A stretch of 11,225 bases of DNA from a virus (IMGVR_UViG_3300011226_000006); one strand, 5' to 3'. Positions 305 to 9,568 are shown, counted from the first letter of the stretch. Notes: generated by a model from the sequence alone, not told the origin. A program made the numbers and translations.

Positions 305-693
305 AGATGAGTTATTGGGCGCTCATTTTAACGTTTATTGCTTGTATTGCTGGTGGTCTTGTTTGGTCAGCGAATCACTATCATGGAAAGTTTCTGGAGG
401 AGCAGAAGCGTGCTGACGCTGCGGAACAGCGAGCTGATTCTACTGAGGCTATCACCGCGAATGTTCTGCGTACTATGGCAATAACGAACATCATTCAGGA
501 GGCGAATCAATATGCAAAACAGCAGATCGCACTGGAGTCACAGAGAACCCAGGAAGATATCAAAGTGGCTGTTGCGGATGATGATTGTGCTTCACGTCCT
601 GTGCCTGCTGCCGCTGCTGACCGGTTGCGGAAGTACGCGAACAGTTTACGTGAGCATTCCGAAGACTCCACTACCAGTCAGCTTGACTTCTGA
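301..693 (+). CDS. i-spanin (Rz-like inner-membrane spanin subunit)
   Basis: 130 aa with an N-terminal hydrophobic anchor ([18 protein letters not shown]) followed by a charged, coiled-coil-like periplasmic segment; sits directly after the endolysin with an ATGA overlap and contains an embedded +1-frame lipoprotein gene. This is the classic Rz/Rz1 arrangement. Confidence 0.85.
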
Positions 694-826
694 TACACCT
701 GTACCGTTTATACCCAACCCACTGACGTATGGTGCAAGTCTTGATTTGAATGTAAGTTTGTTATCCGCGTTGGCTCAATGTAATAGGGATAAGTCTGATA
801 TCAGAATCATTGATAATCAAAATTGA
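578..826 (+). CDS. o-spanin (Rz1-like outer-membrane lipoprotein), begins inside Rz in the +1 frame and extends past it
   Basis: ORF 512-826 contains internal Met-Met at 578/581 followed by a signal-like stretch and a lipobox (LLPLLTG-C), then a Pro-rich mature region ([21 protein letters not shown]). The true start is probably ATG 578 or 581, not 512. Confidence 0.75.
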   Translation: MMIVLHVLCLLPLLTGCGSTRTVYVSIPKTPLPVSLTSDTPVPFIPNPLTYGASLDLNVSLLSALAQCNRDKSDIRIIDNQN

Positions 827-930
827 TGTATATTTTTATCGTCATGTAGATAACGAACAAGGTATTCCTCTGATACGTTTCGTTGAATACAGGTCATGGG
901 TAGGCATTGCAATATCGCTTCGAAATTATC

Positions 931-939
931 TGTGATAAT
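931..939 (+). promoter_or_regulatory. Candidate extended -10 promoter element (TGtGATAAT) for the AT-rich orphan gene
   Basis: tgtgataat at 931-939 matches TGnTATAAT in 8 of 9 positions; there is no convincing -35 at 17 bp spacing. It lies ~90 nt upstream of ATG 1030 in an AT-rich intergenic stretch. Motif-only call. Confidence 0.25.
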
Positions 940-1029
940 GCTCTTAATTTTGAATGTATGTATTTGGGAAAAGAGATAAAGTAATAGTCTAATTAATGGA
1001 GATATCCACAAAACACAAGAGGGACTATT

Positions 1030-1536
1030 ATGCGACCAGATCAATTTTTCTATCCAGATACTTTTACCTTTAATTCATCCACCTATTATGGTCAACGTGA
1101 CTCATCTAAAGGTCGATTGTATATTCTTATTGAAAGTGACTTATGTCCATTTAATATCGGCGATATCATTGTGCAAAAAATGGTCGACAGGGAAAGACTA
1201 TTTGAAGTGCTTGATTACGAGGTACAAATTAGTCTCGAGGCTGGTTGCCCTGGCTACTCACATTTGGCGGTATTGATAGTGAAGGCATTGGATGTAAAAG
1301 AGAAGCCGAAGCAGATTACGACCCATTTGACGTTTAACGGTGCTATTAATGCTGGTGGTGATTTTCAAGCCGGTAATGACAATTCGATCACAAAGAATAT
1401 AACCATTCAACAACTACATGATGCTATAGAGCATTGCAATGATCCAGAGGTTAAAAGCCTTTGGCAAAAGATATTGGAAAATCCGACGTTTGCTTCAATT
1501 GCTTCAATATTGGCAAAAAGTGCTTTAGGACAGTAA
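1030..1536 (+). CDS. Hypothetical protein, 168 aa, no family recognised; low-GC single-gene insert between lysis and packaging modules
   Basis: Long uninterrupted ORF in a ~32-35% G+C region (hand counts on lines 1081 and 1381), preceded by an SD-like AGAGGG about 7 nt upstream of the ATG and followed by a clean intrinsic terminator. No signal peptide or transmembrane segment is apparent; the C-terminus looks amphipathic (SLWQKILENPTFASIASILAKSALGQ). Confidence 0.75.
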   Translation: MRPDQFFYPDTFTFNSSTYYGQRDSSKGRLYILIESDLCPFNIGDIIVQKMVDRERLFEVLDYEVQISLEAGCPGYSHLAVLIVKALDVKEKPKQITTHLTFNGAINAGGDFQAGNDNSITKNITIQQLHDAIEHCNDPEVKSLWQKILENPTFASIASILAKSALGQ

Positions 1537-1545
1537 TTCATCAAG

Positions 1546-1567
1546 CCCCATTCAATATGGGGTTTTT
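1546..1567 (+). terminator. Rho-independent terminator downstream of the orphan gene
   Basis: Perfect 6-bp stem ccccat (1546-1551) / atgggg (1557-1562) with 5-nt loop tcaat, followed immediately by TTTTT (1563-1567), 10 nt after the stop codon. Confidence 0.7.
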
Positions 1568-1593
1568 ATGCTTATTATAAAGAGTTTTCTTCA

Positions 1594-1938
1594 ATGCCAC
1601 CACGAACTCCAAAAGCCTGCCGTGTTCGCGGGTGCCGCCGTACTGACCCGTCAGGTTATTGCGAAAGCCACAAAAGCGAAGGCTGGAAGCAATACAAGCC
1701 AGGACAATCCCGTCATCAGCGCGGCTACGGTTCGAAGTGGGACGTTATCCGCGCGCGTGTGCTGAAACGTGACAAAGGTTTATGTCAGTTATGTCTGCGC
1801 GCTGGTGTGGTGCGTGAGGCGAAAACTGTTGACCACATCATCCCTAAAGCGCATGGCGGCACTGATGCCGACTGTAATCTGCAGAGTCTGTGCTGGCCGT
1901 GTCATAAGGCGAAGACGGCCCGTGAACGGATTAAGTAA
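1594..1938 (+). CDS. HNH endonuclease, phage packaging-associated type
   Basis: 114 aa with paired Cys motifs and HNH core (CQLC...DHIIPKAHGG...NLQSLCWPCHKAK); positioned directly upstream of the terminase small subunit, as is typical for cos-type HK97-like phages. Confidence 0.9.
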   Translation: MPPRTPKACRVRGCRRTDPSGYCESHKSEGWKQYKPGQSRHQRGYGSKWDVIRARVLKRDKGLCQLCLRAGVVREAKTVDHIIPKAHGGTDADCNLQSLCWPCHKAKTARERIK

Positions 1939-1964
1939 GAACCAGTTCCCACTGCCAGAGGGGA

Positions 1965-2024
1965 GGGGCGGGTCAAATCCCTGTGACCTGACGTCTTCCG
2001 GACTGCCCGCCCCATCGTTTTTTT
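1965..2024 (+). repeat. GC-rich inverted repeat (ggggcggg ... cccgcccc) followed by a T7 run; candidate cos/packaging-site element or HNH terminator
   Basis: ggggcggg at 1965-1972 is the exact reverse complement of cccgcccc at 2006-2013 (33-nt spacer), followed by atcg and TTTTTTT (2018-2024). Lies in the HNH-TerS intergenic region. Confidence 0.3.
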
Positions 2025-2063
2025 ATACCCGCGAAAAATGAAATTTAACCAGGAGTGCCGCAT

Positions 2064-2558
2064 ATGGCTGGAACGGCGGGGCGTTCCGGGCGTCGCCCCA
2101 AGCCAACGGCGCGCAAGGCGCTGGCCGGAAACCCCGGCAAGCGAGCCCTGAATAAAGATGAACCTGTTTTTACGCCCATCAAAGGTGTTGAGCCACCGGA
2201 GTGGTTCGCTGAAGAAGATCTCCCTCTCGCCACGATCATGTGGCAACTGACAACCAAAGAACTCTGCGGTCAGGGCCTGCTGTGCGTGACTGACCTCGCG
2301 GTGCTTGAGCGGTGGTGCGTGGCCTACGAGTTCTGGCGACGTGCCGTGAAAAATATTGCCAGACAGGGCAACACCATCACCGGTGCAATGGGCGGTATGG
2401 TCAAAAATCCGGAGCTGACCGCCAAAAAAGAACAGGAGTCCGAGATGAGCAGTACGGGGTCAATGCTCGGACTCGACCCCAGCAGCCGCCAGCGTCTGAT
2501 TGGCCTGGCGGGGAAGAAGAAAGCCACTAACCCGTTTCTGAAAATTATCGAATCATGA
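2064..2558 (+). CDS. Terminase small subunit (P27-family-like)
   Basis: Translation [34 protein letters not shown]... has the Gly/Arg/Lys-rich N-terminus typical of P27-type small terminases. AGGAG at 2051-2055 is 8 nt before ATG 2064; the track start at 2055 is a GTG inside the SD and is less likely. Stop overlaps the TerL start (ATGA). Confidence 0.85.
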
Positions 2559-4225
2559 GCCGGAAATCTTACCCCAACGTAAATGCTGCAAATCAGTATG
2601 CCCGGGATGTCGTGCGCGGAAAGATTATTGCCTGCCAGTTTGTGATTCAGGCCTGCCAGCGCCATCTTGATGACCTGATGGCGGAAAAAAGTAAGTCGTT
2701 TCGTTACCGCTTCGACAAGGACCTGGCTGAACGGGCCGCCAAATTTATTCAGCTGTTGCCGCACACCAAGGGTGAGTGGGCATTTAAACGGATGCCCATC
2801 ACGCTGGAGCCGTGGCAGCTATTTGTGATCTGCTGTGCGTTTGGCTGGGTCAATAAAGGCACCCGGTTGCGCCGCTTCCGGGAGGTGTATACCGAAATTC
2901 CCCGTAAGAACGGCAAATCGGCAATCTCTGCCGGTGTTGCCCTGTATTGTTTTGCCTGTGATAACGAGTTCGGCGCGGAAGTGTATTCCGGTGCCACGAC
3001 GGAGAAACAGGCGTGGGAAGTCTTTCGTCCGGCACGACTGATGTGTAAACGCACACCCATGCTGACGGAAGCGTTCGGGATTGAGGTTAACGCCTCAAAC
3101 ATGAACCGTCCGGAGGATGGTGCGCGGTTTGAACCGCTGATCGGTAACCCCGGTGATGGTTCATCACCCCACTGTGCCGTGGTGGATGAATATCACGAGC
3201 ACGCCACAGATGCGCTTTACACCACGATGCTTACCGGGATGGGGGCGCGACGCCAGCCACTGATGTGGGCCATTACCACCGCCGGGTACAACATTGAGGG
3301 GCCGTGCTACGACAAACGGCGGGAAGTCATCGAGATGCTCAACGGCTCGGTGCCAAACGATGAACTGTTCGGGATCATCTATACCGTTGATGAAGGTGAC
3401 GACTGGACCGACCCGCAGGTGCTGGAAAAAGCCAATCCAAATATTGGCGTGTCGGTTTATCGCGAATTTTTGTTAAGTCAGCAGCAGCGTGCGAAAAATA
3501 ACGCCCGTCTGGCAAACGTCTTTAAAACAAAACACCTCAATATCTGGGTGTCGGCGCGTTCGGCGTATTTCAACCTGGTGAGCTGGCAGAGCTGCGAGGA
3601 TAAATCACTGACCCTTGAGCAGTTCGAGGGGCAGCCGTGGATTCTGGCCTTTGACCTGGCGCGTAAGCTGGATATGAACAGCATGGCGCGACTTTATACC
3701 CGCGAGATTGACGGTAAAACGCATTACTACAGTGTGGCCCCGCGTTTCTGGGTACCGTATGACACGGTGTACAGCGTCGAGAAAAATGAAGATCGCCGGA
3801 CAGCCGAACGCTTTCAGAAATGGGTGGAAATGGGCGTTCTGACTGTTACCGCTGGTGCGGAGGTGGATTATCGCTACATCCTCGAGGAGGCCAAAGCGGC
3901 GAACAAAATCAGCCCGGTCAGTGAGTCACCCATCGACCCCTTCGGGGCGACCGGGCTGTCGCATGACCTTGCTGATGAAGACCTGAACCCCATCACCATC
4001 ATTCAGAACTACACCAACATGTCCGATCCGATGAAAGAGCTGGAAGCGGCGATTGAATCGGGGCGCTTTCATCATGACGGCAATCCCATCATGACCTGGT
4101 GTATCGGCAACGTGGTCGGCAAAACCATTCCGGGTAACGATGATGTGGTGAAGCCTGTCAAGGAGCAGGCGGAAAACAAAATCGATGGTGCGGTNNNNNN
4201 NNNNGATGCTCTCTTAATTCTATGA
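2555..4225 (+). CDS. Terminase large subunit; C-terminus interrupted by an N-run
   Basis: 556-aa ORF with the ATPase-region signature ([21 protein letters not shown]..., VVDEYHEH...) and a nuclease-region C-terminal half. The last codons cross the 10-N run at 4195-4204, so the exact stop is uncertain: 4223-4225 as tracked, or 4215-4217 if the gap length is off by one like the others. Confidence 0.9.
4195..4204. other. Run of 10 N (assembly gap or masked bases) inside the terminase large-subunit 3' end
   Basis: Literal n characters in the sequence. Confidence 0.95.
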
Positions 4226-4383
4226 AATCACTAATTGCTGATGTTATCGGGCTGGCTGGTTTTGGCCTGCTTACGTGCGGGTTTTACCTGCAGTTTGGTA
4301 TGGCTCCGGCTCTGATGCTGTCCGGCGGTTTACTGCTGGTGGGCGCACTGGCTATGGCCAGAAGGGGGACGCGTGCTGCTTGA
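4222..4383 (+). CDS. Small predicted membrane protein (53 aa, two hydrophobic helices); not in the ORF track
   Basis: ATG 4222 to TGA 4381-4383 translates [56 protein letters not shown] overlaps the tracked terminase stop (tATGA) and the 3' end overlaps the portal GTG start by 11 nt. No SD of its own, so translation would rely on coupling. Confidence 0.4.
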   Translation: MKSLIADVIGLAGFGLLTCGFYLQFGMAPALMLSGGLLLVGALAMARRGTRAA

Positions 4384-5599
4384 TGCTCTGTTCAGAAGTA
4401 AATCACTGGAGAATCCTTCCACCCCGATAACCGGGGATGCCGTTGATACTGATGGGCTGTTCCGGGCAGACGTTTATGTCAGTCCTGAAACTGCGATGAA
4501 ACTGGCTGCGGTGTATTCCTGTATCTATGTCCTGTCTTCCAGCCTTGCCCAGATGCCGTTGCATGTTATGCGCAGGCACAATGGGAAGGTTGAGCCCGCA
4601 CGCGATCATCCGGCGTTTTATCTGGTTCATGATGAGCCCAATACCTGGCAAACCAGTTACAAATGGCGCGAACTGAAGCAACGTCACATCCTTGGCTGGG
4701 GGAATGGGTATACCTGGGTGAAACGTAATCGTCGCGGTGAAGTCATATCCCTGGATTGCTGTATGCCGTGGGAAACGACGTTGATGAATACTGGTGGCCG
4801 ATACACCTACGGTTTGTACAACGAATATGGGGCGTTTGCGATCAGCCCCGACGATATGATCCACATCCGTGCGCTGGGTAATAATCAGAAGATGGGGCTG
4901 AGTCCGATTATGCAACATGCCGAAACAATAGGCATGGGGATGAGCGGTCAGAAATACACAGAAAGCTTCTTCAGCGGTAATGCCCGTCCGGCGGGGATAG
5001 TATCCGTTAAAAGCGGACTCAATAAGGACAGCTGGGGCTGGCTTAAAGATCAGTGGCAGAAGGCATCGCAGGCGTTACGCAGCCAGGAAAACAAACCCAT
5101 GCTGCTGCCAGCCGATCTGGATTACAAGGCACTGACTGTGTCGCCAGTTGACGCTCAGATCATTGACATGATGAAACTGAACCGTTCAATGATTGCCGGT
5201 ATTTTCAATATTCCTGCGCACATGATTAATGACCTCGAAAAAGCCACCTTCTCCAATATTTCTGCGCAGGCGATTCAGTTTGTCCGCTACACGATGATGC
5301 CGTGGGTGACGAACTGGGAGCAGGAGCTTAACCGTCGCTTGTTTACCCGCGCTGAGTTAGCCGCCGGGTATTACGTCAGGTTCAATCTGACGGGGCTTTT
5401 ACGCGGAACTCCACAGGAGCGCGCGCAATTCTATCACTTCGCTATTACCGATGGATGGATGAGCCGTAATGAGGCCCGTGCATTCGAGGATATGAATCCG
5501 GTTGAAGGGCTAGATGAGATGCTGGTAAGCGTGAATGCTGCTAACCCGGCAGGAGATTTTAAGCCCCCAAAAAATGATGAGGGAAAAACCAATGAATGA
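4373..5599 (+). CDS. Portal protein (HK97 family)
   Basis: 408 aa, typical size and order (TerL -> portal -> protease -> capsid). GTG start at 4373 preceded by GGGGG at 4363-4367. No hydrophobic segments. Confidence 0.9.
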   Translation: MLLDALFRSKSLENPSTPITGDAVDTDGLFRADVYVSPETAMKLAAVYSCIYVLSSSLAQMPLHVMRRHNGKVEPARDHPAFYLVHDEPNTWQTSYKWRELKQRHILGWGNGYTWVKRNRRGEVISLDCCMPWETTLMNTGGRYTYGLYNEYGAFAISPDDMIHIRALGNNQKMGLSPIMQHAETIGMGMSGQKYTESFFSGNARPAGIVSVKSGLNKDSWGWLKDQWQKASQALRSQENKPMLLPADLDYKALTVSPVDAQIIDMMKLNRSMIAGIFNIPAHMINDLEKATFSNISAQAIQFVRYTMMPWVTNWEQELNRRLFTRAELAAGYYVRFNLTGLLRGTPQERAQFYHFAITDGWMSRNEARAFEDMNPVEGLDEMLVSVNAANPAGDFKPPKNDEGKTNE

Positions 5600-6194
5600 C
5601 CGTGAAATCCGTTGTTACAGCGGTGAGGTGCGTGCTGAGCGGCATGACGATAACCCTGCGCACATTATCGGTTATGGATCGGTGTTTGACTGTCGTTCTG
5701 AGCTGATATTTGGTTCATTCCGCGAAATCATCCGGCCCGGCGCTTTTGACGATGTGCTTGGTGATGATGTACGCGCACTGTTTAACCACGATCCTAATTT
5801 TATTCTTGGGCGTAGTGCAGCAGGCACGCTGAATCTTTCAGTTGATGAGCGCGGATTGCGCTATGACATCCAGGCTCCGGAGACACAGACCATTCGTGAT
5901 CTGGTGCTGGCCCCGATGCAACGTGGAGATATTAACCAGTCATCTTTTGCTTTCCGTGTCGCCCGTGACGGCGAGGAGTGGTATCAGGATGAGGACGGGG
6001 TTGTTATTCGCGAGATAACCCGCTTTTCCCGTCTGCTGGATGTCAGTCCTGTGACATATCCTGCCTATCAGGAGGCTGACTCGGCTGTTCGCTCCATGAA
6101 AGCATGGCAGGACGCGCGCAACAGCGGCGCGCTACAGAAAGCCATTAATCAACGTATGGCGCGTGAACGCGTCCTGACCCTTCTTAACGCGTAA
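5592..6194 (+). CDS. Prohead maturation protease (HK97 family)
   Basis: ORF 5535-6194; the likely start is ATG 5592 (MNDREIRCYSGEVRAERHDDNPAHIIGYGSVFD...), with GAGGG about 9 nt upstream, overlapping the portal stop by 8 nt. Position between portal and capsid is canonical. Confidence 0.9.
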   Translation: MNDREIRCYSGEVRAERHDDNPAHIIGYGSVFDCRSELIFGSFREIIRPGAFDDVLGDDVRALFNHDPNFILGRSAAGTLNLSVDERGLRYDIQAPETQTIRDLVLAPMQRGDINQSSFAFRVARDGEEWYQDEDGVVIREITRFSRLLDVSPVTYPAYQEADSAVRSMKAWQDARNSGALQKAINQRMARERVLTLLNA

Positions 6195-6204
6195 AGGAAA
6201 CATC

Positions 6205-7444
6205 ATGAAACTGCATGAACTGAAACAGAAACGTAATACTATCGCAACTGACATGCGCGCCCTGAATGAAAAAATTGGTGATAACGCATGGACGGAAGAG
6301 CAGCGCACTGAGTGGAACAAAGCAAAATCCGAACTGGAAGCTCTTGATGAACGAATTGCACGCGAAGAAGAACTGCGTCGTCAGGATCAGGCGTACATTG
6401 AAAGCAATAAGGAAGAGCAGCGTCAGAATCTTGATCCGGAAAACAATTCGCAACAGGATGAGAAACGAGCTCAGGTTTTTGATAAGTGGATGCGTCACGG
6501 TGCCAGTGAGCTGACATCAGAAGAGCGAAAGGCGTTGCGTGAACTTCGTGCCCAGGGTGTAGCTCAGGATGAAAAGGGCGGATATACCGTACCAGAAACA
6601 NNNNNNNNNNTTCCTGGCGAAAGTTGTTGAGAAGATGAAATCCTACGGTGGCATCGCCAGTGTGGCGCAGATTCTGACCACTTCTGACGGTCGCACCATG
6701 GAGTGGGCAACAGCTGATGGTACTTCCGAAGTTGGTGTTCTGCTGGGCGAAAATGAAGAAGCCGGTGAAGAAGACACCGATTTCGGTATGGGAAGTCTTG
6801 GGGCGCTCAAAATGACATCGAAAATCATTCGTGTGTCTAATGAGTTGCTGCAGGACAGCGCGATCGATATGGAAGCTTATCTTGCCCGTCGCATTGCTGA
6901 ACGTATTGGTCGTGGTGAAGCCCGTTATCTGATTCAGGGGACGGGGGCTGGTACGCCTAAACAACCCAAAGGGCTGGTCGCATCTGTGACCGGCACAACA
7001 CAGACTGCCGCGGCAAATACGGTGAAGTGGCAGGAAATTCTGGCTCTGAAACACAGCATTGATCCTGCATATCGTCGCGGACCGAAATTCCGCCTGGCGT
7101 TTAACGATAATACGCTGAAACTGATCAGTGAGATGGAAGACGGTCAGGGACGCCCTTTATGGTTGCCGGATATTGTTGGTGTGGCACCTGCTTCAGTGTT
7201 GAATGTACCGTATGTCATTGATCAGGAAATTGATGATATCGGGGCGGGGAAAAAATTCATGTTCTGTGGTGACTTTGATCGCTTCATTATCCGTCGTGTG
7301 CGATACATGATTCTTAAACGTCTGGTTGAGCGTTACGCGGAATATGATCAGACCGGTTTTCTGGCCTTCCATCGTTTTGACTGTATCCTGGAAGACACCT
7401 CTGCCATTAAAGCGCTGGTGGGGAAAGGTAGCGTTGGTGGTTGA
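6205..7444 (+). CDS. Major capsid protein, HK97-fold, with N-terminal coiled-coil delta (scaffold) domain; split by an N-run at 6601-6610
   Basis: Track ORFs 6205-6630 and 6569-7444 are two halves of one gene. The pre-gap part is a charged coiled-coil domain ending GGYTVPET; the post-gap part (FLAKVVEKMKSYGGIASVAQILTTSDGRTMEW...) reads as a capsid body. The frame changes by +1 across the N-run, so the gap length is not exact. AAGGA SD precedes ATG 6205. Confidence 0.85.
6601..6610. other. Run of 10 N inside the major capsid gene
   Basis: Literal n characters; causes an apparent frameshift between the two capsid ORF halves. Confidence 0.95.
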
Positions 7445-7470
7445 TTAGTCTTTTTACGTAATACAGCACG

Positions 7471-7490
7471 CCGCGTAATGCGGTTTTTTT
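7471..7490 (+). terminator. Weak intrinsic-terminator-like hairpin with T7 tail after the capsid gene
   Basis: ccgc (7471-7474) / gcgg (7480-7483) stem with gtaat loop, followed by TTTTTTT (7484-7490). The stem is only 4 bp, so this is at best a leaky terminator or attenuator. Confidence 0.35.
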
Positions 7491-7512
7491 GTGCCCGCGT
7501 TCTGGCGGGCAC
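7491..7512 (+). promoter_or_regulatory. Perfect 8-bp stem-loop immediately upstream of the connector-gene SD
   Basis: gtgcccgc (7491-7498) / gcgggcac (7505-7512) with 6-nt loop gttctg; AGGAGG (7513-7518) and ATG 7523 follow directly. Confidence 0.4.
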
Positions 7513-7522
7513 AGGAGGTTTT

Positions 7523-7850
7523 ATGCTGTTAAAAATGGAAGAGATTAAGCTTCAGCTCCGTCTGGATGATGANNNNNNNNNNNNNNNNNNNNNNNNNNNN
7601 NNNNNTGCTTGGTAAGGCCGCTCAGAGTCGTACGGAAAACTTCCTTAACCGTAAGTTGTATGCAACCGCAGATGACAGGCCTGCGGATGATCCTGATGGG
7701 CTTGTGATATCTGATGATGTGAAGCTGGCGCTTCTGCTACTTGTCAGCCATTTCTACGAAAACCGCTCAACGGTTACAGACGTTGAGAAAATGGAGTTGC
7801 CAATGAGTTTTAACTGGTTGGTTGCTCCTTATCGCCTTATACCACTATGA
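7523..7850 (+). CDS. Head-tail connector protein (gp6-like), interrupted by the N-run at 7573-7605
   Basis: ATG 7523 with AGGAGG 5 nt upstream translates MLLKMEEIKLQLRLDD..., then after the N-run ...LGKAAQSRTENFLNRKLYATADDRP...LLLLVSHFYENRSTVTDVEKMELP.... The frame changes by +1 across the gap. The track start at 7566 (MM...) is an artefact. Confidence 0.7.
7573..7605. other. Run of 33 N inside the connector gene
   Basis: Literal n characters. Confidence 0.95.
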
Positions 7851-8257
7851 AAATTCGTCAGGCGCAGACCAGCGCAACCTACATACTGCCGGACCCCGGC
7901 GAACTGAATAAACGCGTCCTGATCCGCCAGCGGGTGGATATGCCCGCGGATAACTTTGGCGTGGAGCCTCAATACCCGGTTACGTTCCGGACATGGGCGA
8001 AGGTTATCCAGACCAGTGCCACCACCTGGCAGGAAACCGCGCAGACAGGGGACGCCATCACCCATTACATCACCATTCGCTACCGCCGGGGGATCACCGC
8101 TGATTATGAGGTGGTCTGCGGTGACAGTGTGTACCGGGTGAAACGTCAGCGCGATCTGAACGGGGCGCGGCGCTTTCTGCTGCTGGAGTGTACGGAACTG
8201 GGCGAATTTACGCAGAGTCACGGAGGCAGCAATGGCGACTCCCTTTTTTCACGTTGA
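7847..8257 (+). CDS. Head-tail adaptor / head closure protein
   Basis: 136 aa; ATGA overlap with the connector stop. The pattern ...ITHYITIRYRRGITADYEVVCGDSVYRVKRQRDLNGARRFLLLECTE resembles head-tail joining proteins as I remember them. Confidence 0.75.
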   Translation: MKIRQAQTSATYILPDPGELNKRVLIRQRVDMPADNFGVEPQYPVTFRTWAKVIQTSATTWQETAQTGDAITHYITIRYRRGITADYEVVCGDSVYRVKRQRDLNGARRFLLLECTELGEFTQSHGGSNGDSLFSR

Positions 8258-8432
8258 TGTTCAGCAGCCCGCGGAGATGCGCTTTAACCGCGCCCGTGTC
8301 CGGCGGGCGTTTGTCACGATTGGGCAGCGTCATATGCGTGATGCCCGTCGGCTGGTGATGCGCCGTGCGCGGTCGGCACCGGGTGAAAATCCCGGTTATC
8401 AGACCGGACGTCTGGCTCGTTCGATTGGTTAG
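8232..8432 (+). CDS. HK97 gp10-like tail-completion protein, N-terminal part, ending at an in-frame TAG (probable disrupted gene)
   Basis: Strong SD GGAGG (8221-8225) 6 nt before ATG 8232. Translation ...RHMRDARRLVMRRARSAPGENPGYQTGRLARSIG stops at TAG 8430-8432 in the middle of what looks like the conserved gp10-family core. Confidence 0.6.
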   Translation: MATPFFHVDVQQPAEMRFNRARVRRAFVTIGQRHMRDARRLVMRRARSAPGENPGYQTGRLARSIG

Positions 8433-8738
8433 ATGGTGCCGAGAGCCAGTAAAAAGCGAGCCGGTTTTATGACACGCATTGCCCCTAACCAGCGCAACGG
8501 GAAGGGGAACCGGATGATCTCTGGTGACTTCTATCCGGCGTTTCTGTTTTTTGGTGTCCGGGGAGGAGCAAAACGTCGTCGTAGCCATCATCGTGGTGCA
8601 TCCGGTGGCAGCGGCTGGCGGCTGGCTCCACGTAATAACTTTATGGTGGAAACTCTTGAAAAGAACCGCAGCTGGACACGCTATTTTCTGGCGCGGGAAT
8701 TACGTAAATCACTGAAGCCGGAGCGACGACGCAGATGA
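8433..8738 (+). CDS. HK97 gp10-like tail-completion protein, C-terminal part (same frame, downstream of the TAG)
   Basis: Same reading frame as 8232-8432 and directly abutting the TAG. No SD precedes ATG 8433. Continues the family-like pattern (...DFYPAFLFFGVRGG...PRNNFMVETLEKNRSWTRYFLARELRK). Stop overlaps the next gene start (ATGA at 8735). Confidence 0.5.
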   Translation: MVPRASKKRAGFMTRIAPNQRNGKGNRMISGDFYPAFLFFGVRGGAKRRRSHHRGASGGSGWRLAPRNNFMVETLEKNRSWTRYFLARELRKSLKPERRRR

Positions 8739-9389
8739 AACTGACGCCTGTTATTGCTGCGCTGCGTGCCCGCTGCCCGTATTTTGAAAACCGGGTGGCA
8801 GGCGCGGCACAGTTCAAAAATCTGCCGGAGGTCGGAAAGCTGAGACTCCCGGCGGCGTATGTGGTACCGGGTGATGACTCTCCGGGAGAAAACAAAAGCC
8901 AGACCGACTACTGGCAGGAGCTGAAAGAGGGCTTCTCCGTGGTTGTCATACTGAGTAACGGGCGTGATGAGCGCGGTCAGTTTGCTTCGTATGATGTGGT
9001 GGACGATGTCCGGCAGATGCTCTTTAAGGCCCTGCTGGGCTGGAACCCGGAAGCGTGCGGTAACCCGATTACCTATGACGGCGGCACGCTGCTGGATCTG
9101 AATCGTCATGAGCTGATTTATCAGTTCGATTTTTCGGTCATCAGCGAGCTGACCGAAGACGATACCCGCCAGCAGGATGAGCTGAACAGTCTGGATGAAC
9201 TGCGAACGCTGGCGATTGATGTTGATTATTTCGATCCCGGTAACGGGCCTGACGGCGATATCGAACATCACACCGNNNNNNNNNNNNNNNNNNNNNNNNN
9301 NNNNNNNNNNNNNNNNNNNNNNNNNNNNNNNNNNNNNNNNNNNNNNNNNNNNNNNNNNNNATCACACCGAAATAACCCTTCCTTCCTGA
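8735..9389 (+). CDS. Mu-like tail-module protein (gp37-like, family unverified); 3' region crosses the 85-nt N-run
   Basis: ATG 8735 translates MKLTPVIAALRARCPYFENRVAGAAQFKNLPEVGKL...DGDIEHHT before the gap. After the gap the frame HTEITLPS-stop ends at 9387-9389. The 277-aa track ORF (8735-9568) is a gap-induced fusion with the next gene. Confidence 0.55.
9276..9360. other. Run of 85 N, flanked on both sides by the identical 9-mer atcacaccg
   Basis: Literal n characters; atcacaccg occurs at 9267-9275 and again at 9361-9369. Confidence 0.95.
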
Positions 9390-9397
9390 GAATCTTC

Positions 9398-9568
9398 ATG
9401 TTTGTGAAACCTGTTAAAGGGCGGTCAGTGCCTGACCCTGCCCGCGGTGACCTTTTGCCCACCGAAGGGCGAAATGTTGACGAGAACAACTACTGGCTGC
9501 GCCGTGAAGCAGCGGGTGATATCCGGCGCGTGAATAAAAAGGTGAACACCGATGACGACAAGCTTTAA
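9398..9568 (+). CDS. Small Mu-like tail-module protein (gp38-like, 56 aa; family unverified)
   Basis: ATG 9398 to TAA 9566-9568 translates MFVKPVKGRSVPDPARGDLLPTEGRNVDENNYWLRREAAGDIRRVNKKVNTDDDKL. Overlaps the sheath start by 17 nt. Hidden in the track inside the chimeric 8735-9568 ORF. No strong SD. Confidence 0.5.
   Translation: MFVKPVKGRSVPDPARGDLLPTEGRNVDENNYWLRREAAGDIRRVNKKVNTDDDKL

Follow-up and report, generated by a model that had tools for sequence, protein, structure and literature searches.

A probable moron in the slot between the spanin and HNH-terminase genes of an SfV/SfIV-like Escherichia coli prophage

Positions 807 to 1593 of the viral DNA analyzed here (IMGVR_UViG_3300011226_000006; the whole stretch of 11,225 nt is referred to as the window) probably constitute a moron, i.e., a horizontally acquired single-gene transcription unit. 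The unit occupies the slot between Rz/Rz1 and HNH-TerS-TerL in an SfV/SfIV-like, HK97-headed prophage. This assessment is made from sequence comparisons and extends to the mechanism of expression proposed below. By definition, a moron is additional DNA of deviant G+C content that brings a promoter and a terminator of its own (Juhala et al. 2000; Cumby et al. 2012; PMC3594210). A sequence-only reading had described a self-contained unit within the late operon, composed of a promoter-like element, a Shine-Dalgarno sequence, a gene, and a terminator. Support for this description came from a footprint shared with one homologous locus (L017), from motif enrichment across lineages, from solitary copies of the gene, and from recurrent terminators. 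The features of the unit and its surroundings are as follows.

Window start: endolysin gene, 3' end only
301-693: Rz
512-826, plus strand: Rz1/LysC o-spanin gene, left flank (PF23793 LysC, 3.7e-15; phrog_214 and phrog_456, Rz-like spanins)
807-1593, no strand assigned: inserted AT-rich island (probable moron) in the variable slot between Rz1 and HNH (homology break and G+C content)
827-1029, plus strand: leader or regulatory region, noncoding, 33% G+C (no gene annotated in RefSeq/GenBank relatives)
930-949, plus strand: conserved noncoding block CTGTGATAATGCTCTTAATT, comprising the putative -10 element and the bases up to the predicted start (comparison with L017)
931-939, plus strand: putative extended -10 element TGTGATAAT, TG-n-GATAAT, hexamer at 934-939 (read in the sequence)
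1018-1023, plus strand: Shine-Dalgarno sequence AGAGGG (core GAGG), 6 nt before ATG 1030 (read in the sequence)
1030-1536, plus strand: ORF168, cargo gene of 168 aa (phrog_5789 match and dN/dS)
1543-1567, plus strand: predicted intrinsic terminator, stem AAGCCCCAT/ATGGGGTTT, loop TCAAT, T5 (pattern scan and fold)
1594-1938, plus strand: HNH endonuclease gene, right flank (PF01844, 9e-15; PF05119 Terminase_4)
2055-2558: TerS, P27-family small terminase
2555-4225: TerL, large terminase
Downstream of TerL: portal, protease, and capsid genes
7566-7850: head-tail connector
7847-8257: head completion protein, PF05521
After the head completion gene: tail terminator and sheath genes

The window corresponds to the late region of an SfV/SfIV-type E. 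coli prophage with an HK97-like head and a contractile tail. It was 98.7% identical to E. coli SCU-482 across positions 1 to 2600 and 95.7% identical to phage vB_EcoM-689R6 across positions 494 to 2600. In both relatives, the gene for the Q antiterminator precedes the holin genes and is situated 3 to 4 kb upstream of the island. The HNH gene is the first gene of the packaging module, which has the order HNH, TerS, TerL. Rz1/LysC is nested in Rz and runs on past the Rz 3' end. All four ATGA junctions previously noted between late genes (at 301, 2555, 7847, and 8735) are present in the sequence.

Comparisons with related phages delimited the island. In the alignment with SfIV, homology stopped at window position 806 and restarted exactly at the HNH start codon (ATG 1594). 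In five E. coli prophages that share this HNH-TerS-TerL module (91 to 95% identity), homology restarted at positions 1580 to 1594, and the left break to SfIV and these five relatives was at about 801 to 806. All six have both flanks and lack 807-1593; the claim of a foreign insert was thereby confirmed, the extra DNA being missing at the same position in related phages. The contents of the slot between the spanin and HNH genes varied, with iss/bor on the opposite strand in L006 and L008, DUF6979 and an IS3 element in L004, two minus-strand hypothetical genes in L005, one plus-strand and one minus-strand hypothetical gene in L007, and 290 bp with no annotated gene in SfIV. Judged from these alignments, 807-1593 has been inserted between Rz1 and HNH, at a site whose cargo varies. 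The HNH-TerS module was carried by about 1195 of 5426 complete E. coli genomes and the island by 29 of 5426. The island sequence was found at 97 to 99% identity in these 29 genomes, one sequenced phage, and 14 IMG/VR contigs. Among E. coli genomes, the leader (807-1029) was confined to the 29 that carry the gene, and a plasmid search for the island gave no match.

The composition of the island is unlike that of the surrounding genes (G+C of 0.36 versus 0.54; 0.361 for 807-1593 and 0.539 for the remaining window). The G+C content was 0.370 for 827-1570, 0.330 for the leader (827-1029), and 0.385 for ORF168, and no 744-nt sliding window elsewhere fell below 0.470 (mean, 0.542; standard deviation, 0.032). 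The discrete trough that had been proposed was thus borne out by the G+C profile, and codon usage agreed with it (GC3 of 0.34 in ORF168 versus 0.46 to 0.69 in the adjacent genes). Both the trough and ORF168 are clearly beyond chance. Homologues of the gene had a G+C content of 37 to 43% in every host, with flanks at 46 to 57%, except for a Vibrio island in which the gene (0.37) resembled its flanks (0.36).

ORF168 matched PHROG 5789 (function unknown) from end to end (E = 5e-77). One search retrieved 21 clusters of homologues (48 to 98% identity), and an exhaustive profile search of 1.8 billion representatives retrieved 64 clusters. An alignment of 19 sequences had 35 invariant columns. Compared with a 71%-identical homologue, dN was 0.167 and dS was saturated at 3.3 (dN/dS of about 0.05). 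From these comparisons, ORF168 is judged to be a real gene under purifying selection. Searches of Pfam, NCBIfam, PADLOC, and PDB sequences with ORF168 gave no match, and PADLOC-DB 2.0 gave a single, meaningless 13-bit match across eight family members. Every family member bore the database name "hypothetical protein," and a literature search on the family accessions returned nothing. The JGI label "CsrA" on two relatives had no Pfam support and was discarded, as were giant Ig/cadherin-repeat proteins (P0025 and P0065) that matched the profile through repeat-domain cross-matches and are unrelated.

Members of the family occupy accessory positions of mobile elements. They were located after the lysis cassette in at least three different lambdoid backbones, two genes from a BstA defense gene at a prophage end, beside a serine recombinase gene in the Vibrio island, and in a cf-PICI-like E. 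coli satellite. No conserved partner gene was found in any gene context examined.

These data also refute the idea that the low-G+C stretch is a decaying remnant or an artifact of assembly or masking rather than an acquired unit. Four masked runs of N do occur in the window, and a second apparent G+C trough (9200-9450) coincides with one of them. However, 807-1593 contains no N bases, the same sequence recurs at 97 to 99% identity in the 29 genomes, the phage, and the 14 contigs, and ORF168 is intact and under purifying selection. We regard this explanation as having practically no chance of being correct.

About 200 nt of AT-rich noncoding DNA had been proposed upstream of the gene, and the leader fits this description: its G+C content is 33%, relatives have no gene annotated there, hidden open reading frames of 41 aa (plus strand) and 75 aa (minus strand) had no PHROG match, and no Rfam family was detected. 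The extended -10 element previously read as TGtGATAAT is present at 931-939, with no usable -35 element; a -35/-10 pattern scan of the leader found no plus-strand site. Extended -10 promoters work without a -35 element. The Shine-Dalgarno sequence AGAGGG was likewise found ahead of ATG 1030, at 1018-1023, and all homologue loci have AAGGA or AAGAG in this place.

Motif statistics were dropped as evidence for a promoter, since neither the -35/-10 scan nor the following tests gave an excess. With at most one mismatch, TGNTATAAT occurred 6 times in the window (6.1 expected), and a crude position weight matrix (PWM) promoter scan showed no excess over shuffled sequences in the window or at homologous loci. 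At the sequence level, the unit has a candidate promoter of its own, with a motif that by itself occurs at chance frequency; the support for a promoter is solely comparative.

The first comparison is with L017, which encodes a 71%-identical protein and has the order gene, 113-aa gene, TerS, TerL, portal. Window positions 930 to 949 were identical to L017 at 20 of 20 positions, whereas the other 20-nt windows of the leader were 35 to 55% identical and essentially unalignable. The conservation of this block equaled that of the best coding segment. Because synonymous sites are saturated and the block is nevertheless fully conserved, it is judged to be under selection. In IMG/VR, the block was seen only together with the gene; within the sequences searched, it travels only with the ORF168-family gene. 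A conserved 17-mer was considered as a portable promoter and rejected. Its 57 genome-contig matches included none in Enterobacterales and were about the number expected by chance in 596 Gb (an estimate), and the 17-mer matches lacking the gene in IMG/VR were in unrelated low-G+C phages.

The second comparison covered 14 lineages. An extended -10-like motif (TG-n followed by a hexamer matching TATAAT at four or more of six positions, including A2 and T6, between -120 and -16) was present in 10 of the 14, compared with 3.6 expected from shuffled sequences and with 7 of 107 control open reading frames from the same loci (Fisher P = 1e-7, a value that overstates independence because the 14 lineages are partly related). 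The motifs upstream of homologues included TGTGAT(T/C)AT, TGAGATTAT, TGGTAAATT, and TGATAATAT. Relative to the ATG, the motif was located at -40 to -44 in eight lineages, at -99 in the window, and at -95 in L017.

Past the -10 hexamer, a further 10 nt are conserved (GCTCTTAATT), and the block might serve as an operator or an RNA element, either in addition to or in place of a promoter. If 930-949 were mainly regulatory, acting as a repressor or activator operator or as an element of the 5'-leader RNA, expression would be conditional and not constitutive. The recurrence of GCTCTTA in L021 and the long predicted leader (84 nt) would fit such a role, as would TGTGA within the block, which is a CRP half-site, and the palindrome ATTATCtgtGATAAT (925-939), which overlaps the -10 element. 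However, the palindrome is missing from L017, the second CRP half-site is poor (TCTTA versus TCACA), and Rfam gave no match. Additionally, the distance from motif to ATG varies (-99 versus about -42), so a promoter fits better than a leader structure. We therefore consider a mainly regulatory block very unlikely; it would be compatible with a moron and would alter only how the moron is regulated.

Downstream of the gene, the hairpin and T5 tract that had been placed at 1546-1567 proved to be real, with a stem that starts at 1543. The predicted terminator begins 7 nt past the stop codon and consists of a stem (1543-1551/1557-1565), a 5-nt loop, and T5 at 1563-1567. Its folding energy is -14 kcal/mol (z = -3.7 versus shuffled sequences), and its strength is moderate, with four G-C pairs and T5. 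At the sequence level, the unit thus has its own terminator. Canonical terminators (a hairpin and T-run within 75 nt of the stop codon) were found 3' of the gene in 8 of 14 lineages, compared with 20 of 129 control long open reading frames at the same loci (P = 0.001). Their stems were unlike between lineages: AAGCCCCAT, AAACCCTGC, AAACCGCC, AACCGCC, AACCTCC (three lineages), and GCCCG. Two more lineages had strong hairpins with no T-run, and the canonical hairpin and T-run were missing from L009, L121, L122, L012, L123, and L125. The junction to the next gene, TTTTTTATTGGAG...ATG (ATTGGAG-ATG), was common to four lineages, and L004, which has different cargo, also has a terminator just ahead of HNH; the terminator may thus be part of the slot boundary and not of the cargo alone.

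Solitary copies of the gene bear on its autonomy. In four unrelated backbones, the homologue is the sole gene on its strand, and both neighbors are on the opposite strand. These are Serratia prophages, in which it lies between an SLT-domain gene and a DUF927 primase gene with a 600-bp gap upstream; the IMG/VR contig L123; Klebsiella phage P12620-1; and the cf-PICI-like E. coli satellite, which carries a more distant family member. The visible genes of the satellite encode an integrase, AlpA, Bro-N, a primase, SSB, the family member, capsid, protease, portal, HNH, TerS, and TerL (satellite classes are as in PMC10085698). With both neighbors on the opposite strand, the homologue is not readable from a neighboring operon and must have its own promoter. 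Autonomy is not universal, because in L009, L121, and L122 the homologue is close to the spanin gene (only 44 to 92 nt after Rz/Rz1, on the same strand) and because six lineages lack a canonical terminator.

The exceptions bear on a different account, according to which ORF168 would be only a passenger of the late operon, a piece of foreign DNA without a working promoter that relies on the Q-modified complex alone for its transcription, and the hairpin would be a 3' stabilizer, a processing site, or an incidental feature of the slot. Such an account would explain why the gene points the same way as the late operon in the window and most lambdoid carriers, why the motif and PWM statistics show no promoter excess, and why in L009, L121, and L122 the gene is on the strand of the spanin gene, 44 to 92 nt after it, with no canonical terminator. 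What it does not explain is a 20/20 block located precisely at the -10 element against a background of saturated neutral sites, the enrichment of the extended -10 motif across lineages, the enrichment of terminators 3' of the gene, and the copies that stand alone on the opposite strand in Serratia, L123, P12620-1, and the E. coli satellite, which are beyond the reach of neighboring operons. On this balance, a passenger without a promoter is unlikely.

For the preferred reading, that of a moron, we infer promoter activity, expression in the lysogen, insulation of the downstream genes, and read-through by the Q-modified complex, and we propose the following mechanism. Sigma-70 RNA polymerase would start at the -35-independent extended -10 element (931-939), with a predicted start near A946/A947, and produce an mRNA about 620 nt long, of which the first 84 nt would be leader. 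ORF168 would be translated from the GAGG Shine-Dalgarno sequence. The transcript would end at the hairpin and T5 (1543-1567), 27 nt short of the HNH ATG; this terminator would prevent transcription in the lysogen from running into HNH and the terminase genes. A point against expression in the lysogen is that H-NS could silence an AT-rich island in E. coli.

The sequence-only reading had pointed out that late transcription would need to bypass this terminator, and Q, which is encoded upstream in near-identical prophages (97 to 99% identity to the window), offers an explanation. Polymerase modified by Q passes intrinsic terminators in lambdoid phages. In lytic growth, the late complex, modified by Q, would ignore the terminator, and ORF168 would also be made late; the unit would in this way leave the late operon unbroken. 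A second, stronger terminator-like structure, a tandem hairpin downstream of the capsid gene (7470-7518; -35.8 kcal/mol for 7440-7540), lies in the same late operon and must also be passed by late transcription.

The island resembles known morons. Lambda bor and E. coli iss occupy the same slot, between Rz/Rz1 and the packaging genes (iss in L006 and L008), and the bor/iss and ORF168 units are alike in being single small accessory genes of the kind counted as morons (PMC3594210). However, iss/bor runs on the opposite strand, and its product is an outer membrane lipoprotein for serum resistance, whereas ORF168 reads in the direction of the late operon, contains neither a signal nor a lipobox sequence, and shows no sequence relationship to iss/bor. 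The prototype moron, HK97 gene 15 (superinfection exclusion), is like the island a single extra gene in a late operon of an HK97-type phage, with deviant composition and its own promoter and terminator (PMC3594210), but it differs in its slot, which is in the tail operon, and in encoding an unrelated protein.

The ORF168 protein was modeled with AlphaFold2 using a 56-sequence alignment (pLDDT of 78.7). The model consists of a six-stranded barrel (residues 10 to 86; pLDDT of about 95), a segment with a pLDDT below 50 (residues 104 to 118), and three C-terminal helices (residues 126 to 166). The low-pLDDT segment is among the most conserved, with F112, Q113, A114, G115, and N118 invariant in the close clade. 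It contains a phi-Q-phi-G-(N/S/D/T) motif that was found in 44 of 56 family members, typically as G-x-Q-V-Q-V-G-N-N-N; the core is VQVG in most members and FQAG in the ORF168 clade. In ORF168, the motif is internal (residues about 106 to 119). In distant members, the C-terminal module is kept, and the barrel is swapped for a zinc ribbon, a winged-helix-like domain, or another N-terminal domain. The tail of distant members (...LLENSTVASIIGAGASALLGLL) is hydrophobic (17-residue Kyte-Doolittle mean of 1.6 to 2.0), and that of the ORF168 clade is only weakly so (0.7 to 1.2 over 17 residues).

The family motif resembles the G-phi-Q-phi-G core that is common to RHIM, fungal PP, and bacterial BASS3 motifs (bioRxiv 10.1101/2020.01.06.895854), and Bab/Agp (BASS11) proteins are amyloid-controlled cell death effectors of E. 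coli prophage defense islands (bioRxiv 10.1101/2024.11.07.622273). The Pfam RHIM profile matched 7 of 56 family members (best E = 0.0015); the scores listed (17.3 and 15.6 bits) were under the 20-bit cutoff, and the profile did not match ORF168 itself. Like Bab/Agp, BASS3/RHIM, and fungal HET-S, the family has a short, highly conserved N/Q/G-rich phi-Q-phi-G motif that the AlphaFold monomer does not place, and, like Bab/Agp, its members are prophage encoded and have a helical part that may be membrane directed. The low pLDDT at the conserved residues 104 to 118 is compatible with an amyloid and is not evidence for one. Unlike in the amyloid effectors, the motif is internal and not terminal, no adjacent gene has a matching motif, and the hydrophobic segment is C terminal. 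We do not place the ORF168 family in a Bab/Agp-type family, because the defining paired terminal motifs are absent.

The barrel fold is neck protein-like; PilZ and FMN-binding barrels scored nearly as high, and the fold is therefore generic. Head-completion or stopper proteins (PF05521; SF1141, phage Chi Neck 2) showed no sequence or profile relation to ORF168, whose gene is outside the head-tail joining module; the window has a PF05521 gene of its own (7847-8257). An hhalign comparison of ORF168 with the product of that gene gave a probability of 0.14%, and a role for ORF168 as a decoy of the phage's own stopper protein was rejected for want of a profile relationship.

A role of ORF168 in conflict or exclusion is a lead only. 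Our best guess, a tentative one, is that the lysogen expresses ORF168 as a conflict protein, by which competing phages are excluded or aborted. The N-terminal neck protein-like barrel would be the recognition part, and the phi-Q-phi-G segment, helices, and hydrophobic tail would be a self-associating, membrane-directed part. The pattern across the family hints at a conflict module made of one protein, in which a self-associating, membrane-directed effector would be joined to a recognition domain that can be swapped; in function, it would be an analogue of amyloid-switched effectors such as Bab/Agp. In its most specific form, the idea is of a hitherto undescribed family of conflict modules, each a single gene for about 168 aa, that combine a swappable N-terminal recognition domain with a constant C-terminal part (a RHIM-like phi-Q-phi-G motif for self-association, amphipathic helices, and a membrane-attacking glycine-zipper tail) and that abort or exclude competing phages, like Bab/Agp or HET-S in one protein. 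We consider this version speculative and rather unlikely. The modules would be carried, as morons, by prophages, phage-plasmid-like phages, and cf-PICI-type satellites across Gammaproteobacteria.

As a textbook moron in a well-known slot, the island adds an example and no new concept. Its value is practical, in that it provides a compact, portable, and apparently autonomously expressed gene of an uncharacterized family. Tests of the family would be inexpensive, given the length of 168 aa and an evident conserved motif as a target for mutation. It recurs in accessory or defense-type positions, after lambdoid lysis cassettes, near BstA, and alone in a cf-PICI-like satellite, and genes in such positions are often phage exclusion or host fitness factors.

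In many carriers of the AT-rich island (807-1593), homology to the window starts abruptly at 494-499, inside Rz and just before the start of Rz1, and upstream of this point the holin, the endolysin and the N-terminal part of Rz differ from those of the window. A mosaic junction is therefore placed inside Rz. The island and the adjoining HNH gene are thus accompanied on their travels by the segment formed by the Rz C-terminus and Rz1. Several unrelated cargoes (in loci L011, L019, L120, L021 and L004) end in a terminator that is followed by a common TTTTT(T)ATTGGAG...ATG junction leading into the next late gene. This hints that the boundary made up of the terminator and the Shine-Dalgarno serves the slot as a recombination or junction module. 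A second intrinsic-terminator-like site lies within the late operon, directly 3' of the major capsid gene (predicted folding energy of window 7440-7540, -35.8 kcal/mol):

7470-7518, tandem terminator-like hairpins: GCCGCGTAATGCGGTTTTTTT, then a GC-rich stem of 13-14 bp

Within the island leader, a perfect 6-3-6 palindrome, ATTATCtgtGATAAT (925-939), overlaps the -10 hexamer and creates a promoter-like match in mirror image on the minus strand (954-925). The palindrome is not kept in L017, the locus of an ORF168 homologue compared with the window. In L124 (E. coli CH459, NZ_CM166353.1), the IS4-like element ISVsa5 is inserted in the AT-rich leader at the equivalent of window position ~855, which places it ~90 nt 5' of the conserved -10 block. 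The insertion leaves both this promoter block and the gene intact.

In L024 (IMGVR_UViG_2711768073_000020; 2020-8406), the DNA that corresponds to window 1580-2739, running from HNH up to where TerL begins, is present in two copies, the second beginning ~1.7 kb past the end of the first. This repeated presence suggests an insertion or duplication in that prophage's packaging module. The window itself contains four masked runs:

4195-4204, masked N run
6601-6610, masked N run
7573-7605, masked N run
9276-9360, masked N run (85 N)

The last is straddled by a second apparent G+C trough (9200-9450), which is partly an artefact, and is likewise spanned by a 277-aa ORF (8735-9568) that probably represents two genes, with tail terminator (PF23840) and DUF2635 domains.

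A distant member of the ORF168 family, P0178, was found on three E. coli contigs (L126-L128; gene at 6001-6507 of L126) and has a VQIG motif and a glycine-zipper tail. Its gene stands alone on the opposite strand, with SSB and primase genes on one side and a capsid gene on the other, within a cf-PICI-like satellite; at 40% G+C it is poorer in G+C than its flanks (51%), and a hairpin lies 3' of it. Elsewhere, TIR-domain and caspase-family genes are located upstream of the holin in E. coli UMNK88 (L005, 1-697), and a BstA gene (KilA-N plus BstA_C; 1164-1928 of L020/L021) lies at a prophage end, two genes from an ORF168 homologue. These TIR-domain, caspase-family and BstA genes are further defence-type cargo of related prophages.
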